The notes: generated by a model from the sequence alone, not told the origin. A DNA stretch of 64,000 bases from Candidatus Marinacidobacterium sp. (GCA_965220965.1 OZ244852.1:256001-320000), one strand, 5' to 3'. Positions 3,390 to 27,405 are shown, numbered from the stretch's first letter. Numbers and translations are program-made.

Positions 3390-4514
3390 ATGGTCCAGTC
3401 GTTGCGGCGCGCCGTGGGCCGCTGCCTGATCGCCTCCCTCCTGGCTCCGGCGGCGTCCGCCGGGATCGCCGCGGCGGAGGATGACGAGTCCCGGTTCCTG
3501 AGCCGCATCCGGCGGCTGACGGTCGAGGGGAAGCGCGCCGGCGAGGGGTATTTCTCGCCCGACGGGAAGGAGATCGTGTTCCAGTCGGAGCGCGAGCCCG
3601 GCAACCCGTTCTTCCAGATCTACTGGCTCTCGCTGGAGACTGGCGACAGCCGCCGCGTCTCCCCCGGCCACGGCAAGACGACCTGCGCGTTCATCTCAGG
3701 AAAGAACGGCGACATCCTCTTCGCCTCCACCCACCTCGACCCGCGCTCGCTCGAGCTCCAGCGCGAGGAGATCGCCTTCCGCGAGAGCGGCCAGGAGCGC
3801 CGCTACGAGTGGGACTACGACCCGGCGATGGACATCTTCGTCGAGCCGCGCTCCGGCGGCGAGCTGATCCGGCTGACCGACGCCCACGGCTACGACGCCG
3901 AGGCCAGCTATTCCCCGGACGGCGAGTGGATCGTCTTCACCTCGAACCGGCCCCGCTTCGAGCGCGAGCTCGACGGCCGGGAGGCCCGCCTCGCGGAGGT
4001 GGACCCGGCCTACTTCGCCGAGATCTACCGGATGCGCGCCGACGGGACCGGGCAGGAGCGGCTGACTGACGTCCCCGGCTACGACGGCGGCCCGTTCTAC
4101 TTCCCCGACGGCTCGGGGATCGTCTGGCGGCGGTTCTCGGAGGACGGCCTCACGGCCGACATCTGGACCATGAATCCGGACGGGTCCGAACCGCGCCAGG
4201 TGACGGACTTCGGCTCGATGAGCTGGGCGCCCTACGTCCACCCGTCGATGGAGTACATCCTCTTCGCCTCGAACAAGCTGGGCTTCTCCAACTTCGAGGT
4301 CTACATGGTGGATCTCGCCGGGGAGAAGGAGCCCGTCCGGATCACGACGGCGGACGGCTTCGACGGGCTTCCGGTCCCCACCCCGGACGGACGCGGCCTC
4401 GCCTGGACCTCCTCGCGACACGGCGGCGAGGGCGGACAGATCTATCTCGCGGACTGGGACCACGAGGCGGCCCTGACGGCGCTCCGCGCCGCGCCGCCGC
4501 GGCGAGGTCAGTAA
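3390..4514 (+). CDS. TolB-like PD40/WD40 beta-propeller protein, secreted
   Basis: Signal peptide and repeated PD40 motifs (YFSPDGKEIVFQS, SYSPDGEWIVFTS, FPDGSGIVW, PTPDGRGLAWTS). Confidence 0.85.
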   Translation: MVQSLRRAVGRCLIASLLAPAASAGIAAAEDDESRFLSRIRRLTVEGKRAGEGYFSPDGKEIVFQSEREPGNPFFQIYWLSLETGDSRRVSPGHGKTTCAFISGKNGDILFASTHLDPRSLELQREEIAFRESGQERRYEWDYDPAMDIFVEPRSGGELIRLTDAHGYDAEASYSPDGEWIVFTSNRPRFERELDGREARLAEVDPAYFAEIYRMRADGTGQERLTDVPGYDGGPFYFPDGSGIVWRRFSEDGLTADIWTMNPDGSEPRQVTDFGSMSWAPYVHPSMEYILFASNKLGFSNFEVYMVDLAGEKEPVRITTADGFDGLPVPTPDGRGLAWTSSRHGGEGGQIYLADWDHEAALTALRAAPPRRGQ

Positions 4515-17672: not shown

Positions 17673-19772
17673 ATGCGCCAACCCCTGATCCATCGAACGC
17701 TCCGCGCCGCGGCCTTCCTCTCCGGTTTCCTGCTCGCCGGAGCGGCGGCCGCCGCCCAGGCGCCCTTCACCATGGCCGACGCGCTTTCGGCGCCGTTCCC
17801 GACCTCGCTGGTCGCCGCGCCCGACGGAAGCCGGGTGGCCTGGGTGTTCGACGAACGGGGCGCCCGGAACGTCTGGACCGCCGAGGCGCCGGACTTCAGC
17901 GGCCAGCGTCGGACCTCGTTCGAGGGGGACGCCGGGACCACGATCAGCGCGCTGGCGTTTTCCCGCGATGGGCGCCGACTCGCCTTCATCCGGGGGGACG
18001 GGCCGAACCGGGCGGGCGAACTGCCGAACCCCACCCATGATCCCGGCGGCGTGGAGCGGGCGCTGTGGATCCTCGACGGCGACGCGGCGCCCCGGCGGCT
18101 CACGGAACCGGCCTCGGCGCCTCTGTTCACCGCGGCCGGAGACGCCGTGCTGTTCCTGCGCGGCGGCAAGGTTCACCGCATCGGCCTCGAACCGGACGCC
18201 GAGCCGGAACAACTGATCGACGGCCGGGGATCCTTCGGAAGCCTGCGGCTCTCGCCGGACGGCGACCGGCTCGCGCTCGTGTCATCGCGGGGAGCGCACT
18301 CGTTCGTGGGGGTCTACGACTTCGAAGCGGAGTCCCTCCACTATCTGGATCCGGCGGTGGACCGCGATGGTTCGCCGGCGTTCTCCCCCGACGGCTCCGC
18401 GGTCGCCTTCCTCCGCCAGCCGCCGGTCCTCGAGCCCTACCTGTTCGTCCCTCGCCGGGAAGGCCCGCCCTGGAGCATCCGGGTGGTGGAGCTCGGCGAG
18501 AACGGTCCGGGCAAGGCGCGCGAGATCTTCCGGGCCGCTCCGGGCCCGGGGAGCGTGTTCTCCGGCACGGCGTCGGCGGACCAGTTGTTCTGGACCGCGG
18601 ACGAAAGGGTCCTCTTTCCCTGGGAGCAGAGCGGCTACCGCCACTTCTACGCAGTGAATGCGTCCGGCGGGGACCCGGAGGCCCTCGCTTCCGGAGCGTT
18701 CGAGGTGGAGTACGCCGTGTCGGACGGCGCGGGCGGCCTGATCGCCGCCACCAACCAGGGCGACATCGACCGCCGCCACCTGTGGCGGCTGGCGCCCGGC
18801 GTCGCGCCCGAGGCGCTGACCTCAGGGCGGGGGATCGAGACGCTCCCGGTCGCGGTGGCCGGCGGCGCCGCCTGGCTGGGCGGCGACGGCCGCCGCCCGC
18901 TCCAGCCGATCGTGCGGGTGGGAGACGGGCCCGAGCGCCCGATGGCACCGGAGGCGTTCCCGGCCGACTTTCCTCTCGACCACATGGTCGAGCCGGAAGC
19001 CGTGGTCTTCCACGCGGCGGACGGCATGGAAATCCACGGCCAGTTGTTCCGGCCGCCGGGAGGGGCGGCGGAGCCGGGGCCGGGGGTCCTGTTCCTCCAC
19101 GGCGGGTCGCGCCGCCAGATGCTGCTCGGCTGGCACTACATGGGCTACTACTCGAACTGCTACGCCTTCCACCAGTACCTGGCGAACCAGGGCTTCACCG
19201 TGCTCTCGGTCAACTTCCGCAGCGGCACCGGCTACGGGATGGAGTTCCGGGAGGCGCTGAACTACGGAGCGAGCGGGGCCGCCGAACACCAGGACGTGCT
19301 CGGCGCCGGACGTTTCCTCGCCGACCTGCCCGGAGTGGACCCGGAGCGGATCGGGCTCTGGGGCGGTTCCTACGGCGGGTATCTGACCGCGATGGGGCTG
19401 TCGCGGGCATCCGATCTGTTCGCCGCCGGGGTGGACATCCACGGCGTCCACGACTGGAACCGCACGATCCAGGGGTTCCTCCCGAGCTACGAGCCGGAGA
19501 ACTTTCCCGAGCAGGCCCGCCTGGCCTTCGAGTCCTCACCGCTCGCCTCGGTGGATGGCTGGCGCTCGCCGGTGCTGCTGATCCACGGCGATGACGACCG
19601 GAATGTCCCGTTCAACGAAACGGTCGAGCTGGTCGAGGAACTCCGTAAGCGCGGGGTCGAGCACGAGCTGCTCGTGTTCCCGGACGAGGTGCACGGCTTC
19701 CTGCGCCGCGCGAGCTGGGTCGAACTCTTCGAACGAAGCGCCGACTTCCTCAGTCGCCACCTGGAGCGCTGA
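17673..19772 (+). CDS. S9 family peptidase (dipeptidyl/acylaminoacyl peptidase), secreted
   Basis: Signal peptide, propeller SPDG repeats, GGSYGG nucleophile, HGDDDRNV, DEVHGF. GGAGG RBS before ATG 17673. Confidence 0.92.
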   Translation: MRQPLIHRTLRAAAFLSGFLLAGAAAAAQAPFTMADALSAPFPTSLVAAPDGSRVAWVFDERGARNVWTAEAPDFSGQRRTSFEGDAGTTISALAFSRDGRRLAFIRGDGPNRAGELPNPTHDPGGVERALWILDGDAAPRRLTEPASAPLFTAAGDAVLFLRGGKVHRIGLEPDAEPEQLIDGRGSFGSLRLSPDGDRLALVSSRGAHSFVGVYDFEAESLHYLDPAVDRDGSPAFSPDGSAVAFLRQPPVLEPYLFVPRREGPPWSIRVVELGENGPGKAREIFRAAPGPGSVFSGTASADQLFWTADERVLFPWEQSGYRHFYAVNASGGDPEALASGAFEVEYAVSDGAGGLIAATNQGDIDRRHLWRLAPGVAPEALTSGRGIETLPVAVAGGAAWLGGDGRRPLQPIVRVGDGPERPMAPEAFPADFPLDHMVEPEAVVFHAADGMEIHGQLFRPPGGAAEPGPGVLFLHGGSRRQMLLGWHYMGYYSNCYAFHQYLANQGFTVLSVNFRSGTGYGMEFREALNYGASGAAEHQDVLGAGRFLADLPGVDPERIGLWGGSYGGYLTAMGLSRASDLFAAGVDIHGVHDWNRTIQGFLPSYEPENFPEQARLAFESSPLASVDGWRSPVLLIHGDDDRNVPFNETVELVEELRKRGVEHELLVFPDEVHGFLRRASWVELFERSADFLSRHLER

Positions 19773-20994
19773 GGCTGGGCTCGTCGGGTGCGAGCGCGGC
19801 CTCGATCTCCCGCCGCGCGCCAGCGTCGGATTCCACCTCGAGGCGGGCCCTCAGCGACGCCCGGGCGCGCCTCGGGCTCAGACGGGCGAGCGCCCAGGCG
19901 GCGTGCCCCCGGACGAGCGGCTCCTCGTGGTCGAGCGCGGCCGTCAGCGCCCGGAAAGCCCCCGGGCCCCCGGTGTTGCCGAGCGCCACGGCCACGTTCC
20001 GGAGGAAGCCGGCGTAGCCCGCCCGCCGGACCGCGCTACGGCGGGTCCGCTCCCGGAAGTCCTCGCGGGAGAGCGCGAGGAGCTCGATGAGCGTCTCTTC
20101 GTGGAGGCCGCCGGGCGTCGGGGCGAGCCGGGGCTCTTCCGCCTTCCCGGCGAAGCGGTTCCAGGGGCAGACGTCCTGGCAGTCGTCGCACCCGAAGATC
20201 CGGTCGCCGATGGCCTCCCGGAATTCCAGCGGGATCGGGCCGCGGAGCTCGATCGTGAGGTAGGAGATGCATCGGCGGCTGTCCACCACGTAGGGCGCCA
20301 CGATGGCGTCCGTCGGGCAGGCGGTCATGCACCGCGTGCAGGAGCCGCAGCGGTCCGGGTGGGCGTCGTCGGGGGGCAACGCGACCGGCAGGAGGAGCTC
20401 TCCGAGGAAGAACCAGGAGCTTCCCCGGGTGGCGATGACGTTCGAGTGCTTCCCGGTCCAGCCGATCCCGGCGCGCTCGGCGTAGGCCTTCTCAAGGAGC
20501 GGGCCGTGGTCGACAAGGACGGGGATCCGGCGGCGGGCGCCCCGGGAGCGAGGCGCGAGCAGTCCGCGCTCTTCGCCGACCTCCTCCGCCCAGCGCGCCA
20601 GCGCCCGCAGCTTCGCCTCCACGACCCGGTGGTAGTCCTCGCCGCGGGCGTACTGCGAGACGACGCCGCCGCCCCCGGGCGCGGTCGCCGCCTCGCCGGC
20701 GTAGTAGTTCAGCGCGCAGACCACGACCGTCCGGTCGGAACCGGCGCGGTCGTCCTCCCCGGAGCAACGCTCCGGGGACCGGGACATCCACCCCATCTCC
20801 CCGTGCCGCCCGTCCGCGAGCCACTCGCGGAAGCGCCTGCCGGCGAGCGGCAGGCGCGAAGGCGCGAAGCCCACCGCGCTGAACCCGAGCCTGAACCCCT
20901 CCTCGCGCAGCGCCTCCCGGAAAGCGCGCCGCGTCGCTTCGTCGGGAGGGACCGAGGCTTCCGTTGGGAGCGAGTCCCGGGTCCGGACGGACAT
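19750..20994 (-). CDS. queG: Epoxyqueuosine reductase QueG with C-terminal HEAT repeat
   Basis: SQYARGEDYH, AGIGWTGK, CGSCTRCMTACPT, CISYLTIE, GCDDCQDVCPWN. Confidence 0.93.
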   Translation of the reverse strand: MSVRTRDSLPTEASVPPDEATRRAFREALREEGFRLGFSAVGFAPSRLPLAGRRFREWLADGRHGEMGWMSRSPERCSGEDDRAGSDRTVVVCALNYYAGEAATAPGGGGVVSQYARGEDYHRVVEAKLRALARWAEEVGEERGLLAPRSRGARRRIPVLVDHGPLLEKAYAERAGIGWTGKHSNVIATRGSSWFFLGELLLPVALPPDDAHPDRCGSCTRCMTACPTDAIVAPYVVDSRRCISYLTIELRGPIPLEFREAIGDRIFGCDDCQDVCPWNRFAGKAEEPRLAPTPGGLHEETLIELLALSREDFRERTRRSAVRRAGYAGFLRNVAVALGNTGGPGAFRALTAALDHEEPLVRGHAAWALARLSPRRARASLRARLEVESDAGARREIEAALAPDEPSLSAPGGD

Positions 20995-21026
20995 GGGGAC
21001 GCGGCGAGCGCCGGTCTCCCGTCCCG

Positions 21027-21836
21027 TTACTTCAACAGGATGAACCGGCGATGGAGCGGCTGGACCGGACGGGCGTTCATCGGGTAGAGGGCCCGGAAGG
21101 CGTCGACCTGCGCCTGAGAGACGGCGATGGAGTCCGTCATCACGACCCAGCTCACGACTTCCGAACACGGCGGCGTGGTCAGCGAGCCGGCGTAGCGGAA
21201 ATAACCGCGTCCTTCGGGGAGGAAGGCGTTCAGGTCGATGCCGGTGAGCGGAGCAGGCGCCTCGTCGACGCCGGGGATGGCGTCCCAGACCGCCTGCAGA
21301 GCGGGATGGGCGTCGCCGGCATCCAGAAAGACGCCGATGACCGCGAGGTCTCCCTCTTCGGCCTGGTGGACGAAGTGGACCTCCAGGGGAAAGGCCGCGC
21401 TTTCGACGGTGTGCTCGCTGGGGGCGTGGAAGTGGAACTGGACGAGCGAGAACCGCCGCCCCTCGAGCGTGATCGAGCTTCCGGCCGACATGTTGACCTG
21501 GATCGTGTGTCCGTTGTCGATGACCTCGCCGTCGGTGGGCGCCCACTCGATGTCGAGCCCGCCGCCGCCGGCTGGAATCGCGCCCGTCAGGTCGATCGGG
21601 GACTGCTGGACGCCGGCGTCACAGATCGCGAACGAGGGGTGGAGGGCGCCCCACCGGTCCGGACCGATGTCCCCCTCGTAGCCCCAGTGAACCTCGGCGC
21701 TCTCGGCCTCCTCGGTGTGTTCCGCATCCATGGATTCCCCCTCGGCCGGGTCCGGCCCATCCGCCTGGCACGCTATCTGAGCGCCCGCCAGGCAGACGAT
21801 GGCGAGGCCCATCCGGATCGAGTGATGGTCTGTCAT
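21027..21836 (-). CDS. Alpha-carbonic anhydrase, probable lipoprotein
   Basis: HWGY, QSPID, QFHFHAPSEH, EVHFVH, GSLTTPPCSE; lipobox-like QIAC. GGAGGAG RBS before ATG 21836. Confidence 0.95.
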   Translation of the reverse strand: MTDHHSIRMGLAIVCLAGAQIACQADGPDPAEGESMDAEHTEEAESAEVHWGYEGDIGPDRWGALHPSFAICDAGVQQSPIDLTGAIPAGGGGLDIEWAPTDGEVIDNGHTIQVNMSAGSSITLEGRRFSLVQFHFHAPSEHTVESAAFPLEVHFVHQAEEGDLAVIGVFLDAGDAHPALQAVWDAIPGVDEAPAPLTGIDLNAFLPEGRGYFRYAGSLTTPPCSEVVSWVVMTDSIAVSQAQVDAFRALYPMNARPVQPLHRRFILLK

Positions 21837-21880
21837 GTTGCTCCTCCGCACACTGTGTCGACGGCCCGGCGCGCCGTTAT

Positions 21881-21994
21881 TCCGACGGCCTCACCGCGAC
21901 CCCCTCCTGGACGCTGTCGCCCGGGTAGACGATAACCCGGTCCTCCGCTTCGAGTCCCTCGAGCACCTGCGCTTCCCGCTGGTTGCGCTCGCCG
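21881..21994. repeat. 114-bp direct repeat, copy A (orphan duplicate of the 3' end of the HlyD/MFP gene)
   Basis: Matches 23005-23118 at 111/114 nt. On the minus strand it reads GERNQREAQVLEGLEAEDRVIVYPGDSVQEGVAVRPSE, followed by TAA. Confidence 0.95.
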
Positions 21995-22000
21995 CGCAAC

Positions 22001-22291
22001 TCACTCGGCCTGCTCCAGTCGCTGGCGCAACGCCTCCGCTTCCAGCTCCAGCTCTTCGAGGATACGCGGAAGGATCTTCTGTTCCCGCTCGATCCTCAGA
22101 CTCGTGCCCACGCCGGTCGCCGAGAAGAACTGCTGCTGGTTCGTTCGCGCGCATTCCGGACACATCGCGACAAGGACCGCCAGGATGAGAAACGGAACGA
22201 GCGCGCCGGCGATCACCCAGTACTGACCCCCTCGCCGATAGCCGTCAAGAATGCGGCGCGCCAGACCGCGGGCCGCTTCGATCCGCCTCAT
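22001..22291 (-). CDS. Orphan bitopic membrane protein with coiled coil (96 aa), paralog of 22288-22905
   Basis: ATG 22291 overlaps the upstream TGA (ATGA). Shares ARRxxxGYRRxGxxW-TM-TSLRxExE with its neighbour. Confidence 0.65.
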   Translation of the reverse strand: MRRIEAARGLARRILDGYRRGGQYWVIAGALVPFLILAVLVAMCPECARTNQQQFFSATGVGTSLRIEREQKILPRILEELELEAEALRQRLEQAE

Positions 22292-22905
22292 GGCGTGAAG
22301 TCCGGCTCCGTCGGCGGAGCCCAGCCCATGCAGACCGCAACACACTCGGTCTGCCACTCGCCGTCCGGCCACAGCAGAACGGATCCGCCAGCCAGAACAC
22401 CTGCGTGGGGCCACAGCGTGCTCAACAACGTCGCGCCGGCCAGAACACCGGCCAGGGGGTACTTGACCTGCCGCCTTCGGGTGTCGCATCCCTTGCTGCA
22501 CCACGAATACTGGAGACCCGTATCCCCGATTGGCTCATAACGGATCGAAGCCTGTGGGTCAGAGTCGATTCCGGGAGCGCTGACAGATGGAGCGCTCGCC
22601 CCGTCCCACTGCGGTGGGCCCGGTGAGACTTCGGATGCAACGCCTGCGATCACTGCTCGCTCCCGAAGTTCCTCGATTTCGCGGGACAGGGATTCGACCC
22701 TGCGCCAGTCTTCCCGCCATTCGTCCTCCATACGAAGCGACGTGTTCATGGACAGGATCTGTCCCACAAAGCCACTGGCGAAGAACGATGTGAAGACCAG
22801 GCCCACTACCAGGAAATACGCGGTCGCCATCCAGGGTCGGCCAGACCGCCGATAGCCTGCGGCCATGCGCCTGGCGACCTGCCGCAATGAGAACCTATGG
22901 TTCAT
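22288..22905 (-). CDS. Orphan bitopic membrane protein with coiled coil and Cys-containing C-terminal region (205 aa)
   Basis: Basic N-terminus, one TM segment, coiled coil, Pro/Ser linker, two CxxxC pairs; paralogous to the downstream ORF. Confidence 0.65.
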   Translation of the reverse strand: MNHRFSLRQVARRMAAGYRRSGRPWMATAYFLVVGLVFTSFFASGFVGQILSMNTSLRMEDEWREDWRRVESLSREIEELRERAVIAGVASEVSPGPPQWDGASAPSVSAPGIDSDPQASIRYEPIGDTGLQYSWCSKGCDTRRRQVKYPLAGVLAGATLLSTLWPHAGVLAGGSVLLWPDGEWQTECVAVCMGWAPPTEPDFTP

Positions 22906-22997
22906 GGAATGTTGACGACGGTCTCGTCAGGAACGCAGCCAAGGCGATTCCACCGACAGTATTCCGTGTTTGGCGCTCGCCCCGGTGAAGGCCTCGT

Positions 22998-24227
22998 TCA
23001 CGGCTCCGACGGCCTCACTGCGACCCCCTCCTGGACGCTGTCGCCCGGGTAGACGATAACCCGGTCCTCCGCTTCGAGTCCCTCGAGCACCTGCGCCTCC
23101 TGCTGGTTGCGCTCGCCGATGCTGACGGTCCGCTCGCTCGCCTGACCGTCTGCGAGCACAAAGACGGCCCAGTCTTCCCCGCGGCGGAAGAGCGCGCCCA
23201 CCGGGACCTTGAGAGCGTCGTCGGTCTCCCAGACGACGACCCGGGTCTCCACCCGGTAGCCGTCGCCCAGACGGCTGCGCGCCTCGAACGGCTCCTCGAG
23301 CGCGATGACCACGTTGACGCGCTGCTCCTCGACGCCGAGCGCCGAGATCTTCGTGAACCCGTGGGGCTCCACCCGCAGGACGCGACCCTCGAGCGGCCGG
23401 TCGCCGCCCCAGCGATCCACCAGCGCGCGCTGGCCGGCGCGCATCCGCACGGCGTCGTTCGAGAGATAGTCGGTCACGACTTCGAGCTCCCGGGGATCTC
23501 CCACCTCGAGCAGGGGCTCGCCGGCGGGGACCACGGCTTCGCTCTCGCGCAGCCGCCGCAGCACGACGCCGTCGACCGGCGAGAAGATCCGGAGTTCCTC
23601 CGGATTCTGGCCGGGCGCGCTGTCGCGGGGACCGGTAACGCGGGCCGGATGGAACCGAAGCAGCCGGGCGCGCGCCGCGGCGAGGCGGCCCCGGGCGTCG
23701 CGGGCCGCGAATTCCGCCGCCTCGAGGGCCTCCTGCCGGGTGTCGAGCGCGAGCCGCGCGGCGTCCAGCCGGTCCGCCGAAACCACCCCGTCCTCACGGA
23801 GGCGGGTGAGACGGTCCAGCGTCGCCTGGGCGTGCGCCCGTTCGGCGGCCGCCTGCTCGTGCAGCGCTTCCGCCTGACCCACCGCGGCCTCCGCCGCCTC
23901 GACGGCGGCCTCCGATTCGGCGCGCCGGCGCGGATCCAGCGGGATCGGCGCGGCCGGCAGGAAGGCGGCGAGGATCGTTTCCCCGGCGAGCACCGGGTCG
24001 CCGGGTTCGAACTCGATGCGGAGAACCCGTCCGGCGACCGGCGCCGAGACCAGGAACCGGTCCCGGACCCGCGTTTCTCCCTCATCGTCGAGCGTGACCT
24101 CGAGCGGGCCTCGGACCACCGGCGCGAGCTCCACCGGAACCGGGCGCGGGCGGGAGGCGAGGGCGATGAGCGCCACGAGGATGAGTCCCCCGAGGCCCCA
24201 GACCACGAGCCGCCTTCGGTTCTTCAT
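22998..24227 (-). CDS. HlyD/MFP-family efflux periplasmic adaptor subunit
   Basis: N-terminal anchor, VSAPVAGRV, helical hairpin, IFSPVDGVV, KISALGVEEQRVNV. Confidence 0.92.
   Translation of the reverse strand: MKNRRRLVVWGLGGLILVALIALASRPRPVPVELAPVVRGPLEVTLDDEGETRVRDRFLVSAPVAGRVLRIEFEPGDPVLAGETILAAFLPAAPIPLDPRRRAESEAAVEAAEAAVGQAEALHEQAAAERAHAQATLDRLTRLREDGVVSADRLDAARLALDTRQEALEAAEFAARDARGRLAAARARLLRFHPARVTGPRDSAPGQNPEELRIFSPVDGVVLRRLRESEAVVPAGEPLLEVGDPRELEVVTDYLSNDAVRMRAGQRALVDRWGGDRPLEGRVLRVEPHGFTKISALGVEEQRVNVVIALEEPFEARSRLGDGYRVETRVVVWETDDALKVPVGALFRRGEDWAVFVLADGQASERTVSIGERNQQEAQVLEGLEAEDRVIVYPGDSVQEGVAVRPSEP
23005..23118. repeat. 114-bp direct repeat, copy B (within the 3' end of the intact MFP gene)
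   Basis: 111/114 identical to 21881-21994. Confidence 0.95.
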
Positions 24228-24251
24228 TCGGTCTTCATCCTTCCCCGGTGA

Positions 24252-26618
24252 TTATTCCCGCGTCTTCAGGACTTCCACCAGGTCGAGACGGCGCAGCCGG
24301 TGGCGCACCAGGATGGCGGAGAGCGCGGTGGCGACCGCCACCGCGGCGGCCGACAGCGCGAAAGTGGCTGGCTCGGCCACCAGCGGCATGCGGAAGAGCT
24401 CCGTCTCGTAGGCGGCCAGCATTCCGGCGAGCATCGAGTAGCCGAGCGCCAGGCCGACCGGGATGGCGACCGCGGTCAGGACTCCCAGCTCGCCGAAGAG
24501 CACGACCCCGATCTCGGCGCGGGTGAAGCCCATGACCCGCATGCTCGCCAGTTCGCGGCTTCGCTCCGAAAGCGAGATCCGCGCCGTGTTGTAGATCACC
24601 CCGAAGGCGATCACCAGCGCGAAGAGGAGGTTGATCGCCATCGTGTTGCTCATGTTCTCGGCCACGAAGGTCTCGAAGTTCTCGATCATCGCGTGCTGAA
24701 GGGCAACGGCGGCGACGACCGGCATCGCCTTGAGAGCGGCGTAGACCGACTCCCGCTCCAGTGGATCGATCCCGAGCGCCGCCCCGGTGAGGTTCGCCGA
24801 GTCCTGGAGGAAGCGCTGGAGATCCTCCGTCTCCATGTAGGCGGAAACGCCCATCAGGTCGTCCACCAGTCCGCCGACGATCATGTCGCGCTCCGGGCGG
24901 GTTCCCTGGAGCGCCTCGACGCGGATCGTGTCGCCCGGCCGCACTCCGAGCGTCTCGGCGAGCATCCGGGAAAGGATCAGCCCACCGCCGTCGAGTTCGA
25001 CCGGCCGCGAGTCCACCCCGACGACGCGCATGAGCCGGGCGTCGGGTCGGGTCGCCTGGATCGCCACCTGCCGGCTGCGATTCCCGTGACGGAGCCGCGC
25101 GGGCGCGCCCCCGGTGGGCTCCACTTCGAGGATCCCCGGGAGCGCCGCCAGCTCGTAGGCGGCGGCCTGGCCCTCCGGCTCCACGAAGGTGACGGTGAGG
25201 TCCTGCCGCTGGACCACATCGAACTGGATCCGCATCAACTCCTCGATGGAGTCGAGGGAAGCGCCGGCGAGAACCATGATCGCGCCGGAAAACGCGATCC
25301 CGACGATGGACATCACCGCGCGGCCGGGACGCCGGGAGAGGTTCCGCAGGACCATCCGCGCCGGCTGGCTCAGCCACCGCCGCAGGCCCAGCCGTTCGAG
25401 CCACGACACGCGAAACGCCTCGGGCGCCGCCGGGCGCATCGCCTCCGCGGGAGGGAGCCGCACCACGCTGCGCACCGCGGTGGCCGCGCCCAGGGCGGCC
25501 GCCCCGCCGCAGGCGAGGAGGGCCGCCGAGATGTGCGCCCAGTTCCAGTCCGGGACGAGCGCCGGGAACCGGTAGTAGTCCATGTAGAGACCGAGCATCG
25601 CCGAGCTCAGGAGCGCTCCGAGGGCGATCCCGAGCGCGCCCCCGGCGACCGAGACGAGGATGGCCCAGTGCGCGAAGTGGGCGCCGAGGCGCGCGCTGGA
25701 GTAACCGATCGCCTTGAGAACGGCGATCTGCTCGCGCTGGACGGCGACCAGCCGCCGCAACACCACGTTCAGCAGGAATGCGGCGATCCCCAGGAAGATC
25801 ATCGGCAGAAGCAGCGCCATGCCGCGAAGCCCGGTGAGCTCGTTCTGGAGGTACCAGTTGGAGACCTGCTGCGCGCGGGGAATCGCGCCGAGGCCGCCGT
25901 AGGGCTCGAGGAGACGGTCCAGTTCGGTGATGGCCGGGCCGGCGGGCGCGCCCTCGGCGAGGGACAGCAGGATGTCGTTGAAGCCGCCCTCCATGTCGAA
26001 TGCGGTGGCGATGTGCTCCCGCGTCATCCAGAAGATCCCGAAGCGACGGGGATCGGGAATCAGGTCCCCGCCTCCGATCGCGTAGACGAACTCGGGCGAC
26101 AGGGCGGTCCCGACGATTTCGAGCCGCTGTCGCCGGCCGTTCAGCACCGCGAAGACGGCGTCGCCCGGCTCGAGGCCGTGCGCCGCCGCGAAGCGTTCGT
26201 TGACGAGGGTCTCCTCGGCCCGCTCCGGGTCGGGCCAGCGTCCCGAACGGAGCGTCAGGTCGTTCAGCGCCGGCCGGCCGCGGTCCGGGATCGAGATGAG
26301 CCTGCCGTTCACCGGTTCGCTGACTCCGGGCACGTCGAGCGTGACGCCGGCGACCACGCGGGTGGCGACGCGGTCCACGCCCGGGAGTCGGGCGAGTTCC
26401 GGAGTCACCCACCGGGGGACCCGCTTGGCCGACGCGAAGACATCGGCGAACGCCGCCCGCGCGTAGTAGCTGTCGCGGGTCCGCTCCAGCGTGTCGAAGC
26501 AGGTGAGCGACGCGACCAGCAGCGCGATGCCGGCGGCGACCACGACCGAGATGGCGAGCGCCATCGAGCGCATCCGCCAGAGGTCGCGGAACAGCTTGCG
26601 GTCGAGCGCCGGGATCAT
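24252..26618 (-). CDS. ABC transporter permease (MacB/FtsX-like, duplicated halves)
   Basis: LDRKLFRDLWR; two FtsX motifs (QREQIAVLKAIGYS, ERSRELASMRVMGFT). Confidence 0.92.
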   Translation of the reverse strand: MIPALDRKLFRDLWRMRSMALAISVVVAAGIALLVASLTCFDTLERTRDSYYARAAFADVFASAKRVPRWVTPELARLPGVDRVATRVVAGVTLDVPGVSEPVNGRLISIPDRGRPALNDLTLRSGRWPDPERAEETLVNERFAAAHGLEPGDAVFAVLNGRRQRLEIVGTALSPEFVYAIGGGDLIPDPRRFGIFWMTREHIATAFDMEGGFNDILLSLAEGAPAGPAITELDRLLEPYGGLGAIPRAQQVSNWYLQNELTGLRGMALLLPMIFLGIAAFLLNVVLRRLVAVQREQIAVLKAIGYSSARLGAHFAHWAILVSVAGGALGIALGALLSSAMLGLYMDYYRFPALVPDWNWAHISAALLACGGAAALGAATAVRSVVRLPPAEAMRPAAPEAFRVSWLERLGLRRWLSQPARMVLRNLSRRPGRAVMSIVGIAFSGAIMVLAGASLDSIEELMRIQFDVVQRQDLTVTFVEPEGQAAAYELAALPGILEVEPTGGAPARLRHGNRSRQVAIQATRPDARLMRVVGVDSRPVELDGGGLILSRMLAETLGVRPGDTIRVEALQGTRPERDMIVGGLVDDLMGVSAYMETEDLQRFLQDSANLTGAALGIDPLERESVYAALKAMPVVAAVALQHAMIENFETFVAENMSNTMAINLLFALVIAFGVIYNTARISLSERSRELASMRVMGFTRAEIGVVLFGELGVLTAVAIPVGLALGYSMLAGMLAAYETELFRMPLVAEPATFALSAAAVAVATALSAILVRHRLRRLDLVEVLKTRE

Positions 26619-26664: not shown

Positions 26665-27405
26665 TCACCACTGGACCGAGGAGGTCGCGGCGCGCGTGGC
26701 GTTGCGCCGCTCCCGGGAGATGCGGCCGTCGGCGAGCGAGACGACCCGGTCGGCGATCGCCGAGATCGCTTCGTTGTGGGTGATGATCGCGGTCGTCGCT
26801 CCGTATTCCCGGTTCACGCGCGCGATCGCCTCGAGCACCTGGACGCCGGTCGTCACGTCGAGCGCGCCGGTCGGTTCGTCGCACAGGAGGATATCCGGCC
26901 GTTTCGCGATCGCGCGGGCGATGGCCACCCGCTGCTGTTCGCCTCCGGACATCTGCGAGGGGAAGTGGTCGGCGCGGGGCCCCAGGCCGACGATGTCGAG
27001 CGCCTCCCCGGCGGGCAGGGGGTCGTCGGAGATTTCGGTCACCAGCTCGACGTTCTCGCGGGCGGTGAGCGAGGGGATCAGGTTGTAGAACTGGAAAACG
27101 AAGCCCACCCGGCGGCGCCGGTAGCGCGTCAGCGCGGTCTCGTCGGCCTCGGTCAGATCCCGTCCCCGGTAGAACACCTTTCCGGCGGTCGGGACGTCCA
27201 GTCCGCCGAGGATGTTCAGCAGGGTGGACTTGCCGCTTCCCGACGGGCCGAGGAGCACGACGAACTCGCCGTCCCGGAAATCGAAGCTCACGCCCCGGAG
27301 CGCGTGCACCTCGACCTCGCCCATCTGGTAGACCTTGGTCACTTCCCGCATCGAAACCGCGGGTTCACCGTTCCGGGAGGCGCGGCCGTCCGGGGACCCG
27401 CTCAT
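26665..27405 (-). CDS. ABC transporter ATP-binding protein (LolD/MacB-like)
   Basis: [37 protein letters not shown]. Confidence 0.95.

Follow-up and report, generated by a model that had tools for sequence, protein, structure and literature searches.

Two described kinds of mobile DNA come closest to the locus reported here. The cis-mobilizable elements (CIMEs) are presented as integrase-less cargo left between the attachment sites attL and attR (PMC5704250), and tycheposon islands are described as having elements flanked by full and partial copies of the target tRNA gene, with degenerate remnants accumulating (bioRxiv 10.1101/2020.12.28.424599). We analyzed a 64,000-nt stretch of Candidatus Marinacidobacterium sp. 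(GCA_965220965.1 OZ244852.1:256001-320000; hereafter the window, whose coordinates are used throughout unless a contig is named), in which two tandem open reading frames, ORF A (205 aa) and ORF B (96 aa), lie between the intact 3' end of an hlyD-type gene and a displaced copy of that end (C1:278001-278905 in the genome, G000). A first-pass annotation had described these frames as twin paralogous membrane proteins; their genomic context, an insert bracketed by a direct repeat, is the main new result beyond it. We consider it fairly probable that the two frames encode tandem, anciently duplicated small single-pass inner-membrane proteins, acquired as the cargo of a lower-GC segment, about 1 kb long, that recombined into the end of hlyD.

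The structure resembles an integrase-less islet with att-like repeats, that is, a CIME-like arrangement: the insert is short, lies where a protein-coding gene ends, carries nothing but the cargo ORF A and ORF B, with no integration or transfer genes, and is flanked by a 114-nt repeat of 97% identity, one copy of which (R1) is the end of hlyD itself. It differs from a CIME in this repeat, which is long, and in that neither a related element with an integrase nor an empty site or a circular form turned up. As in tycheposon islands, a partial copy of the target gene lies downstream of newly arrived cargo and acquisitions appear stacked at one site (the ORF A/ORF B insert, the remnant and a carbonic anhydrase (CA) gene), but the target is a protein-coding gene rather than a tRNA gene, the lineage is another one, and there is no tyrosine recombinase near this locus.

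A repeat-bracketed insert at the end of hlyD

The 114-nt direct repeat that brackets ORF A and ORF B (R1/R2, spacing 1124) carries three mismatches, placed on either side of a 77-nt identical core (A/G, G/A and A/G on the coding strand), which is the trace expected of any crossover between partners that are 97% similar. The downstream copy, R2, starts 7 nt past the ORF B stop and keeps the hlyD reading frame through ...VRPSE. The features of the insertion are as follows.

21995..23004: insert of 1010 nt, comprising ORF A, ORF B and a 92-nt leader, delimited by the repeat copies; GC content lower than in the flanks
22288..22905 (coding 22291-22905), minus strand: ORF A, 205 aa plus stop (TGA, 22290-22288)
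22001..22291 (coding 22004-22291), minus strand: ORF B, 96 aa plus stop (ATG 22291-22289, stop 22003-22001)
23005..23118: repeat copy R1, which forms the final 114 nt of hlyD in its intact form; the frame past R1 ends ...VRPSEP and a stop
21881..21994: repeat copy R2, what remains of the displaced hlyD 3' end, reading ...VRPSE up to a TAA of its own
22998..24227, minus strand: HlyD-type periplasmic adaptor (membrane fusion protein), the insertion target (HlyD_3, E 1.8e-13; TIGR01730, 107.2 bits, cut-off 94.9)

The base composition of this DNA sets it apart from its surroundings, with a GC content of 0.60-0.65 in intervals across 22350-23099 versus 0.69-0.78 in the flanks, and a GC content at third codon positions (GC3) of 0.73 in ORF A and 0.79 in ORF B versus 0.88-0.92 in resident genes; this points to a different origin for the pair. 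As a separate observation, a hairpin at 21982-22000 (7-bp stem, 5-nt loop) spans the junction between insert and R2, whereas the equivalent sequence of the intact hlyD copy forms no palindrome.

Seventeen of the 40 relatives searched have an hlyD ortholog (74-77% DNA identity), and in all 17 the match begins at or inside the 3' end of the gene (at 23007-23042 in 16 of them and at 23419 in G008), while the interval 21870-22978 is matched by none of the 40; a single 34-nt match among these relatives (E 4e-4) overlaps 22979-23012. The two genomes of the same genus, G001 and G002, share the order ATPase-permease-hlyD-queG, and their hlyD and queG matches are adjacent with neither ORF between them: the hlyD stop and the queG start are 3 nt apart in G001 and about 0.33 kb apart in G002, versus 2003 nt in this genome. 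More widely, the exporter operon is conserved without the pair, its DNA identity being 74-79% across the two congeners and the remaining genomes of the family that gave a match. The insertion and the absence of the pair from both congeners are thereby shown, and on this comparison the pair reads as acquired cargo. On the minus strand the gene order is ABC ATPase, permease, hlyD, ORF A, ORF B, R2 remnant, CA and queG, and no promoter-like or terminator-like site was found in 20800-24400. The neighboring genes are listed here.

26665..27405, minus strand: ABC ATPase of the LolD/DevA/MacB type
24252..26618, minus strand: FtsX-type ABC permease, 788 aa (FtsX, E 2.8e-25, two stretches)
21027..21836, minus strand: alpha-carbonic anhydrase (CA) gene (Carb_anhydrase, E 2.9e-40) with its own GGAGG Shine-Dalgarno sequence
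19750..20994, minus strand: queG, tRNA epoxyqueuosine reductase (TIGR00276, 352.5 bits, cut-off 200)

The CA gene, which lies between the hlyD remnant and queG, is a separate, second acquisition: the closest sequences at the DNA level (73%) come from other families of the order, namely G040 (twice, as two inverted copies), G039 and G036, and genomes of the same family keep a 64-68% copy at another locus. Its product has a lipoprotein-like signal, and in G040 the related sequence adjoins ORFs that we take, by eye, to be Vsr-like and HNH-like. The hlyD-queG gap of G002 holds an element of about 270 nt (L027:396-664) that resembles a miniature inverted-repeat transposable element, with 25-nt terminal inverted repeats and nested perfect inverted repeats of 21-22 nt. 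Since this element, the CA gene and the ORF A/ORF B insert all fall at one junction, the hlyD-queG junction is a repeated landing place.

The insert is not an assembly artefact. All sampled words from it are present in two public sequencing runs from different studies, in which it forms one 1107-nt unitig at the depth of its flanks (99.8 versus 87-109 in one run, 5.3 versus 4.3-4.4 in the other) and the 77-nt repeat core forms a separate unitig at double depth (200.1 and 11). A third run contains identical pieces at low depth, and no join that skips the insert is listed in any of the three.

The arrangement suggests that a lower-GC segment of about 1 kb recombined with the hlyD-type adaptor gene at its extreme 3' end. 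Such an event would have rebuilt the 3' end of hlyD, displaced the previous end by 1124 nt in the downstream direction, where 114 nt of it survive, and kept the housekeeping gene beyond it in position. Three routes to this outcome are equally compatible with the sequence. A site-specific element may have targeted the hlyD 3' end, supplied a replacement end and later been reduced to the cargo between attL and attR, as in a CIME; a circle with 114 nt of homology may have entered by a Campbell-type single crossover; or the DNA may have come from a close relative that already had the pair downstream of hlyD, by homology-anchored illegitimate recombination. A search of metagenome contigs and of genome contigs for the exact 39-nt repeat core, undertaken to find a closely related strain with an empty site, gave 0 matches in each. 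We also considered the repeat as the product of a diversity-generating retroelement and rejected this, as there is no reverse transcriptase domain in the insert frames or the neighboring genes and the mismatches do not fall specifically on adenines.

ORF A and ORF B as diverged paralogs

The two proteins share an N-terminal motif, a single transmembrane (TM) segment and a short coiled coil. The identities named in the first-pass annotation (R8, A11-R13, G17-R20, G22 and W25, and the TSLR...LR.R block after the TM segment) are all present in their alignment, and the likeness is far above that expected by chance: BLASTP of ORF A against ORF B gives E 6e-6 (28.9 bits), and the two align with a Smith-Waterman score of 89, which none of 2000 full shuffles attained (27.8 +/- 4.5, max 60) and likewise none of 2000 shuffles that kept residues within the tail, TM and C-terminal zones (33.0 +/- 6.9, max 70). 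When the six-frame translation of the whole 3.25-Mb genome was searched, the only non-self match of each ORF was the other (E 8.4e-4 and 2.9e-3).

The codons indicate that this likeness was kept at the protein level. Among the 77 codon pairs of the alignment, 32 specify the same residue, and in 14 of these 32 the codons differ; the Ser, Arg and Leu identities span codon families (TCG/AGT, AGG/CGC, CGT/AGG and CTT/TTG). When the codons of ORF B were decayed neutrally in silico to the observed DNA identity of 49.8% (n=5000), 17.3 +/- 2.8 identical residues remained (max 28), none of the simulants reached the observed 32, and 4255 of the 5000 contained a stop codon. Nucleotide identity at codon positions 1, 2 and 3 is 0.52, 0.58 and 0.39, in an alignment that was built on protein and so favors positions 1 and 2; over the 77 codons the proportions of synonymous and nonsynonymous differences are 0.61 (pS) and 0.465 (pN), with synonymous sites near saturation. 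Taken together, these comparisons show ORF A and ORF B to be diverged paralogs that, judging from their codons, were kept as proteins over a long past. The protein-level conservation between diverged copies that had been claimed at first sight is thus borne out by both the codon comparison and the simulation, and two further points of the first-pass annotation held up as well. Direct reading of the sequence places the ORF A stop exactly on the ORF B start in the ATGA overlap taken as a sign of translational coupling. The longer start of ORF B had been called false; the ORF list gives ORF B solely as a 167-aa, GTG-started frame (22001-22504), the extra 71 codons of which have a non-coding pattern of GC by codon position (0.82/0.63/0.61, versus 0.72/0.45/0.79 in the 96-aa part), and the public protein collection records an unnamed 96-aa ORF B and not the 167-aa form, so that the 167-aa reading as the true gene is unlikely.

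In ORF A, a basic N-terminal tail (net +7 over residues 1-24) precedes one hydrophobic peak, the predicted TM segment at about 26-52. Next comes a coiled-coil-like helix (about 55-86), which a linker rich in Pro, Ser and Ala joins to a C-terminal region of about 85 aa; this region contains two CxxxC pairs and, encoded by a 25-nt direct repeat, D7 (22386-22410 / 22434-22458; 84%, spacing 48), a tandem repeat of 16 residues (P-x-AGVLAG...). ORF B has the same plan in short form: a basic tail (net +5 over residues 1-24), one hydrophobic peak (about 25-43, the predicted TM segment), then CPEC at the predicted outer face and finally a helix, some 30 residues long and heptad-like in its spacing, that runs to the C-terminus. 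As read from the sequences, the helix after the TM segment has hydrophobic residues at a spacing of roughly 3-4, over about four heptads. AF2 run without an alignment predicts helices at residues 7-20 and 24-86 of ORF A with pLDDT values of 60-80 (overall pLDDT 55). The basic flank of a TM segment lies on the cytoplasmic side (the positive-inside rule), and from the basic N-terminal tails and the net-negative stretch that follows the TM segment in both charge profiles we therefore infer an N-in/C-out topology for both proteins.

Relatives, function and alternative readings

The first-pass annotation recognised no family, and none was found in Pfam, NCBIfam, PHROGs, PADLOC or PDB sequences. The four profile collections gave nothing better than E 0.017 for ORF A or ORF B (PHROGs had no match for ORF A and, for ORF B, solely the unnamed phrog_20468 at E 0.017; 0 PADLOC anti-phage defence families matched either protein), the best match among PDB sequences had E 0.61, and the ESM Atlas offered a usable match for neither protein. 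In a word-indexed search of 5.8 billion clusters, ORF A had 904 candidates, 0 of them at E <= 0.01, and ORF B found itself only. The first-pass annotation had looked to a profile search for dispersed paralogs or tandem arrays; an exhaustive HMMER search of 1.84 billion representatives with a joint ORF A and ORF B profile returned ORF B only. Pattern searches combined with tblastn on genome, metagenome and viral contigs yielded 157, 220 and 82 pattern stretches, respectively, with 0 confirmed, and plasmid and phage records gave no match by DNA or tblastn. Among 54 other genomes of the order (a set that takes in the unpublished G033, on which none of our conclusions rests), the best match of ORF A, E 0.0011 over residues 81-174 inside a 1038-aa frame, was not credible and neither was any other. 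The back-translated motif A-R-R-x3-G-Y-R-R-x-G-x2-W, run over 401 genomes of the phylum including this one, occurs twice in this genome and once in G289, where it lies antisense inside a 577-aa open frame and was dismissed as a chance match. The insert has no second copy in its own genome, and Rfam gave one sub-threshold match, which lies outside it. By our own arithmetic the mutual score of 28.9 bits would correspond to E far above 1 in libraries of this size; as that score is so low, the searches exclude close relatives and not a family as divergent as ORF A is from ORF B.

The pair is probably a genuine, orphan, acquired pair of membrane-protein genes. In the arrangement that we propose, the basic N-termini would lie in the cytoplasm and the coiled-coil-like helices outside, together with the Cys-containing C-terminal region of ORF A, and contacts between the TM segments and between the juxtamembrane helices may join the two proteins. 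A complex prediction of ORF A (residues 1-100) with ORF B scored 0.03 against a mark of 0.34, was run without controls and is not evidence either way. Because no promoter-like or terminator-like site was found in the surrounding region, expression would be by read-through from the exporter operon, with ORF B translated by coupling to ORF A. An undescribed two-protein envelope module is possible but unproven. Protective or exclusion functions are often carried by the cargo of mobile elements, and by analogy one might guess, with little confidence, at such a role at the level of the envelope, in which the outer domain of ORF A would be the working part and ORF B its short partner. If the pair is expressed, it would represent a protein family for which about 15 billion predicted proteins offer no detectable relative, lying beside the scar of its own arrival, and a clean case in which to ask how orphan membrane genes originate and how they get into an operon without breaking it.

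Several observations weigh against the reading of the pair as acquired, working membrane-protein genes. No integrase, empty site or circular junction was seen at the locus or in the sequencing runs. In those runs no single unitig record spans the whole stretch, and an empty site together with a circle of 1124 nt, if equal in copy number, would give the same unitig graph, so that the integrated form is seen in the two-contig assembly only. The exact ORF A protein is absent from the public collection, no form of it was returned by the exhaustive search, and gene callers have apparently passed over it. Upstream of ORF A no Shine-Dalgarno sequence was seen, versus GGAGG at the CA gene and AAGGAG at hlyD of G001. 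The AF2 model of ORF A has nothing reliable past residue 88 (pLDDT 35-56 in the C-terminal part), and the C-terminal 115 codons show a weak coding pattern (GC by position 0.64/0.61/0.73). The codon-position comparison shares the bias of its protein-built alignment, and since there are no orthologs the comparison of ORF A with ORF B bears on past and not on present-day selection.

Some of these points would fit a decaying remnant, in which protein-level selection acted in the donor lineage and the two genes are silent or functionless passengers here. The missing Shine-Dalgarno sequence, the lack of a record of ORF A as a called gene, the lower GC3 with the weak coding pattern of the C-terminal half of ORF A, the want of a promoter-like site of its own and the presence of R2, which shows that the locus tolerates junk, all agree with such a remnant; yet both frames are intact over 205 and 96 codons with the ATGA junction kept, most neutral simulants had acquired a stop at the divergence of ORF A from ORF B, and the insert lies within an operon upstream of the housekeeping gene queG and so is probably transcribed. 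We regard this explanation as unlikely, but as one to be taken seriously. That the ORFs are chance open frames in GC-rich DNA, alike only in composition, is very improbable. Long spurious ORFs are common at this GC content, with many in the ORF list, and TM and coiled-coil segments are compositionally biased, but the zone-preserving shuffles never reached the observed score, Ser, Arg and Leu identities are kept across codon families, and the 12 other frames of the insert have no Pfam match at E <= 0.01 (the single weaker one being SPATA6, E 0.014, 15.9 bits, cut-off 27). The shuffle and simulation controls lead us to reject chance frames.

The two functional assignments suggested at first sight fare worse than the preferred reading of the pair as acquired cargo. 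An accessory or substrate of the adjacent ATPase-permease-HlyD exporter, which the first-pass annotation had taken to be of the MacB type, would fit genes that are co-directional with hlyD, 92 nt downstream of it and with no terminator-like site between; moreover, if the transfer was homology-anchored and came from a close relative, the pair would have lain downstream of hlyD in the donor too, as the 97% repeat suggests. Against this, the insert is absent from congeners with the same exporter order, and the operon is conserved without the pair there and in the matching genomes of the same family. The pair was not found in the 54 other genomes of the order or in the motif scan of the 400 other phylum genomes; hlyD is present in 17 of 40 relatives and the pair in none, and the differing base composition points to another origin. 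We consider a role with the exporter quite improbable. Of the resemblance to FtsB/FtsL-type divisome heterodimers, the architecture stands as a prediction: FtsB (DivIC) and FtsL are bitopic, N-in/C-out proteins with a juxtamembrane coiled coil, and the two small proteins, encoded side by side, are likewise each predicted to have a basic tail, a single TM segment and a coiled coil on the outside. The family assignment does not stand, for neither protein matches DivIC or FtsL at E <= 1, relatives do not keep the pair, and its absence from both congeners means that it is not a core division component. A six-frame search of the genome with DivIC (PF04977) gave four matches, of which one, elsewhere at C1:1570959-1571177 (48.5 bits), exceeds the cut-off and marks the genome's own DivIC-family gene; the locus of the pair is not among the four. 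FtsL (PF04999) matched neither ORF A, ORF B nor anything genome-wide, with a weak model that passed its cut-off in 1 of 14 control genomes. An FtsB/FtsL-type heterodimer is therefore extremely improbable, and the pair should be annotated neither as part of the exporter nor as FtsB/FtsL-like. Rz-type phage i-spanins have an N-terminal TM anchor, a periplasmic coiled coil and outer cysteines, all of which are predicted for the pair, but it differs from them in that PHROGs gave no match for ORF A and solely the unnamed family for ORF B, there is no lysis cassette or phage gene nearby, and no phage record matched.

Other duplications of gene 3' ends in the genome

Self-comparison of the genome revealed two further duplications of gene 3' ends. 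The second, also of 114 nt (95.6%, spacing 433; C1:2821873-2821986 / 2822306-2822419, or L032:1574-1687 and 2007-2120), is at the end of a gene ending ...SVDPSPFRP, and its remnant is in frame with its own stop. The 319-nt insert holds a small opposite-strand ORF with no Pfam match, and insert and remnant are unmatched in five relatives, which are themselves variable at that site. The third duplication, of 122 nt (85%, spacing 1434; C1:2595140-2595261 / 2596574-2596694, or L033:2141-2262 and 3575-3695), affects the end of a multi-AAA ATPase gene. It brackets an ORF of 414 aa that overlaps this gene by ATGA, belongs to no family and lies in lower-GC DNA (0.62-0.66); a PD-(D/E)XK-like gene comes next. 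All this is in a variable island, and the whole region is unmatched in either congener.

By eye, no junction sequence common to the three duplications was seen, and three cases, two of which have the same length, are not enough for claiming a mechanism. A bolder reading, in which the pair is a new two-protein inner-membrane module on one of a class of miniature, integrase-less cassettes that enter gene 3' ends and duplicate about 114-122 nt, seems improbable to us; if true, the three duplications would reflect one defined, undescribed insertion mechanism rather than accidents. The recurring duplication of gene 3' ends is the part of this genome most worth following and perhaps a better lead than the pair itself. 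A different arrangement, unlike the 3'-end duplications, occurs at C1:949142-949249 / 950464-950572, where palindrome-rich direct repeats of 110 nt (91%) flank a 392-aa ORF.

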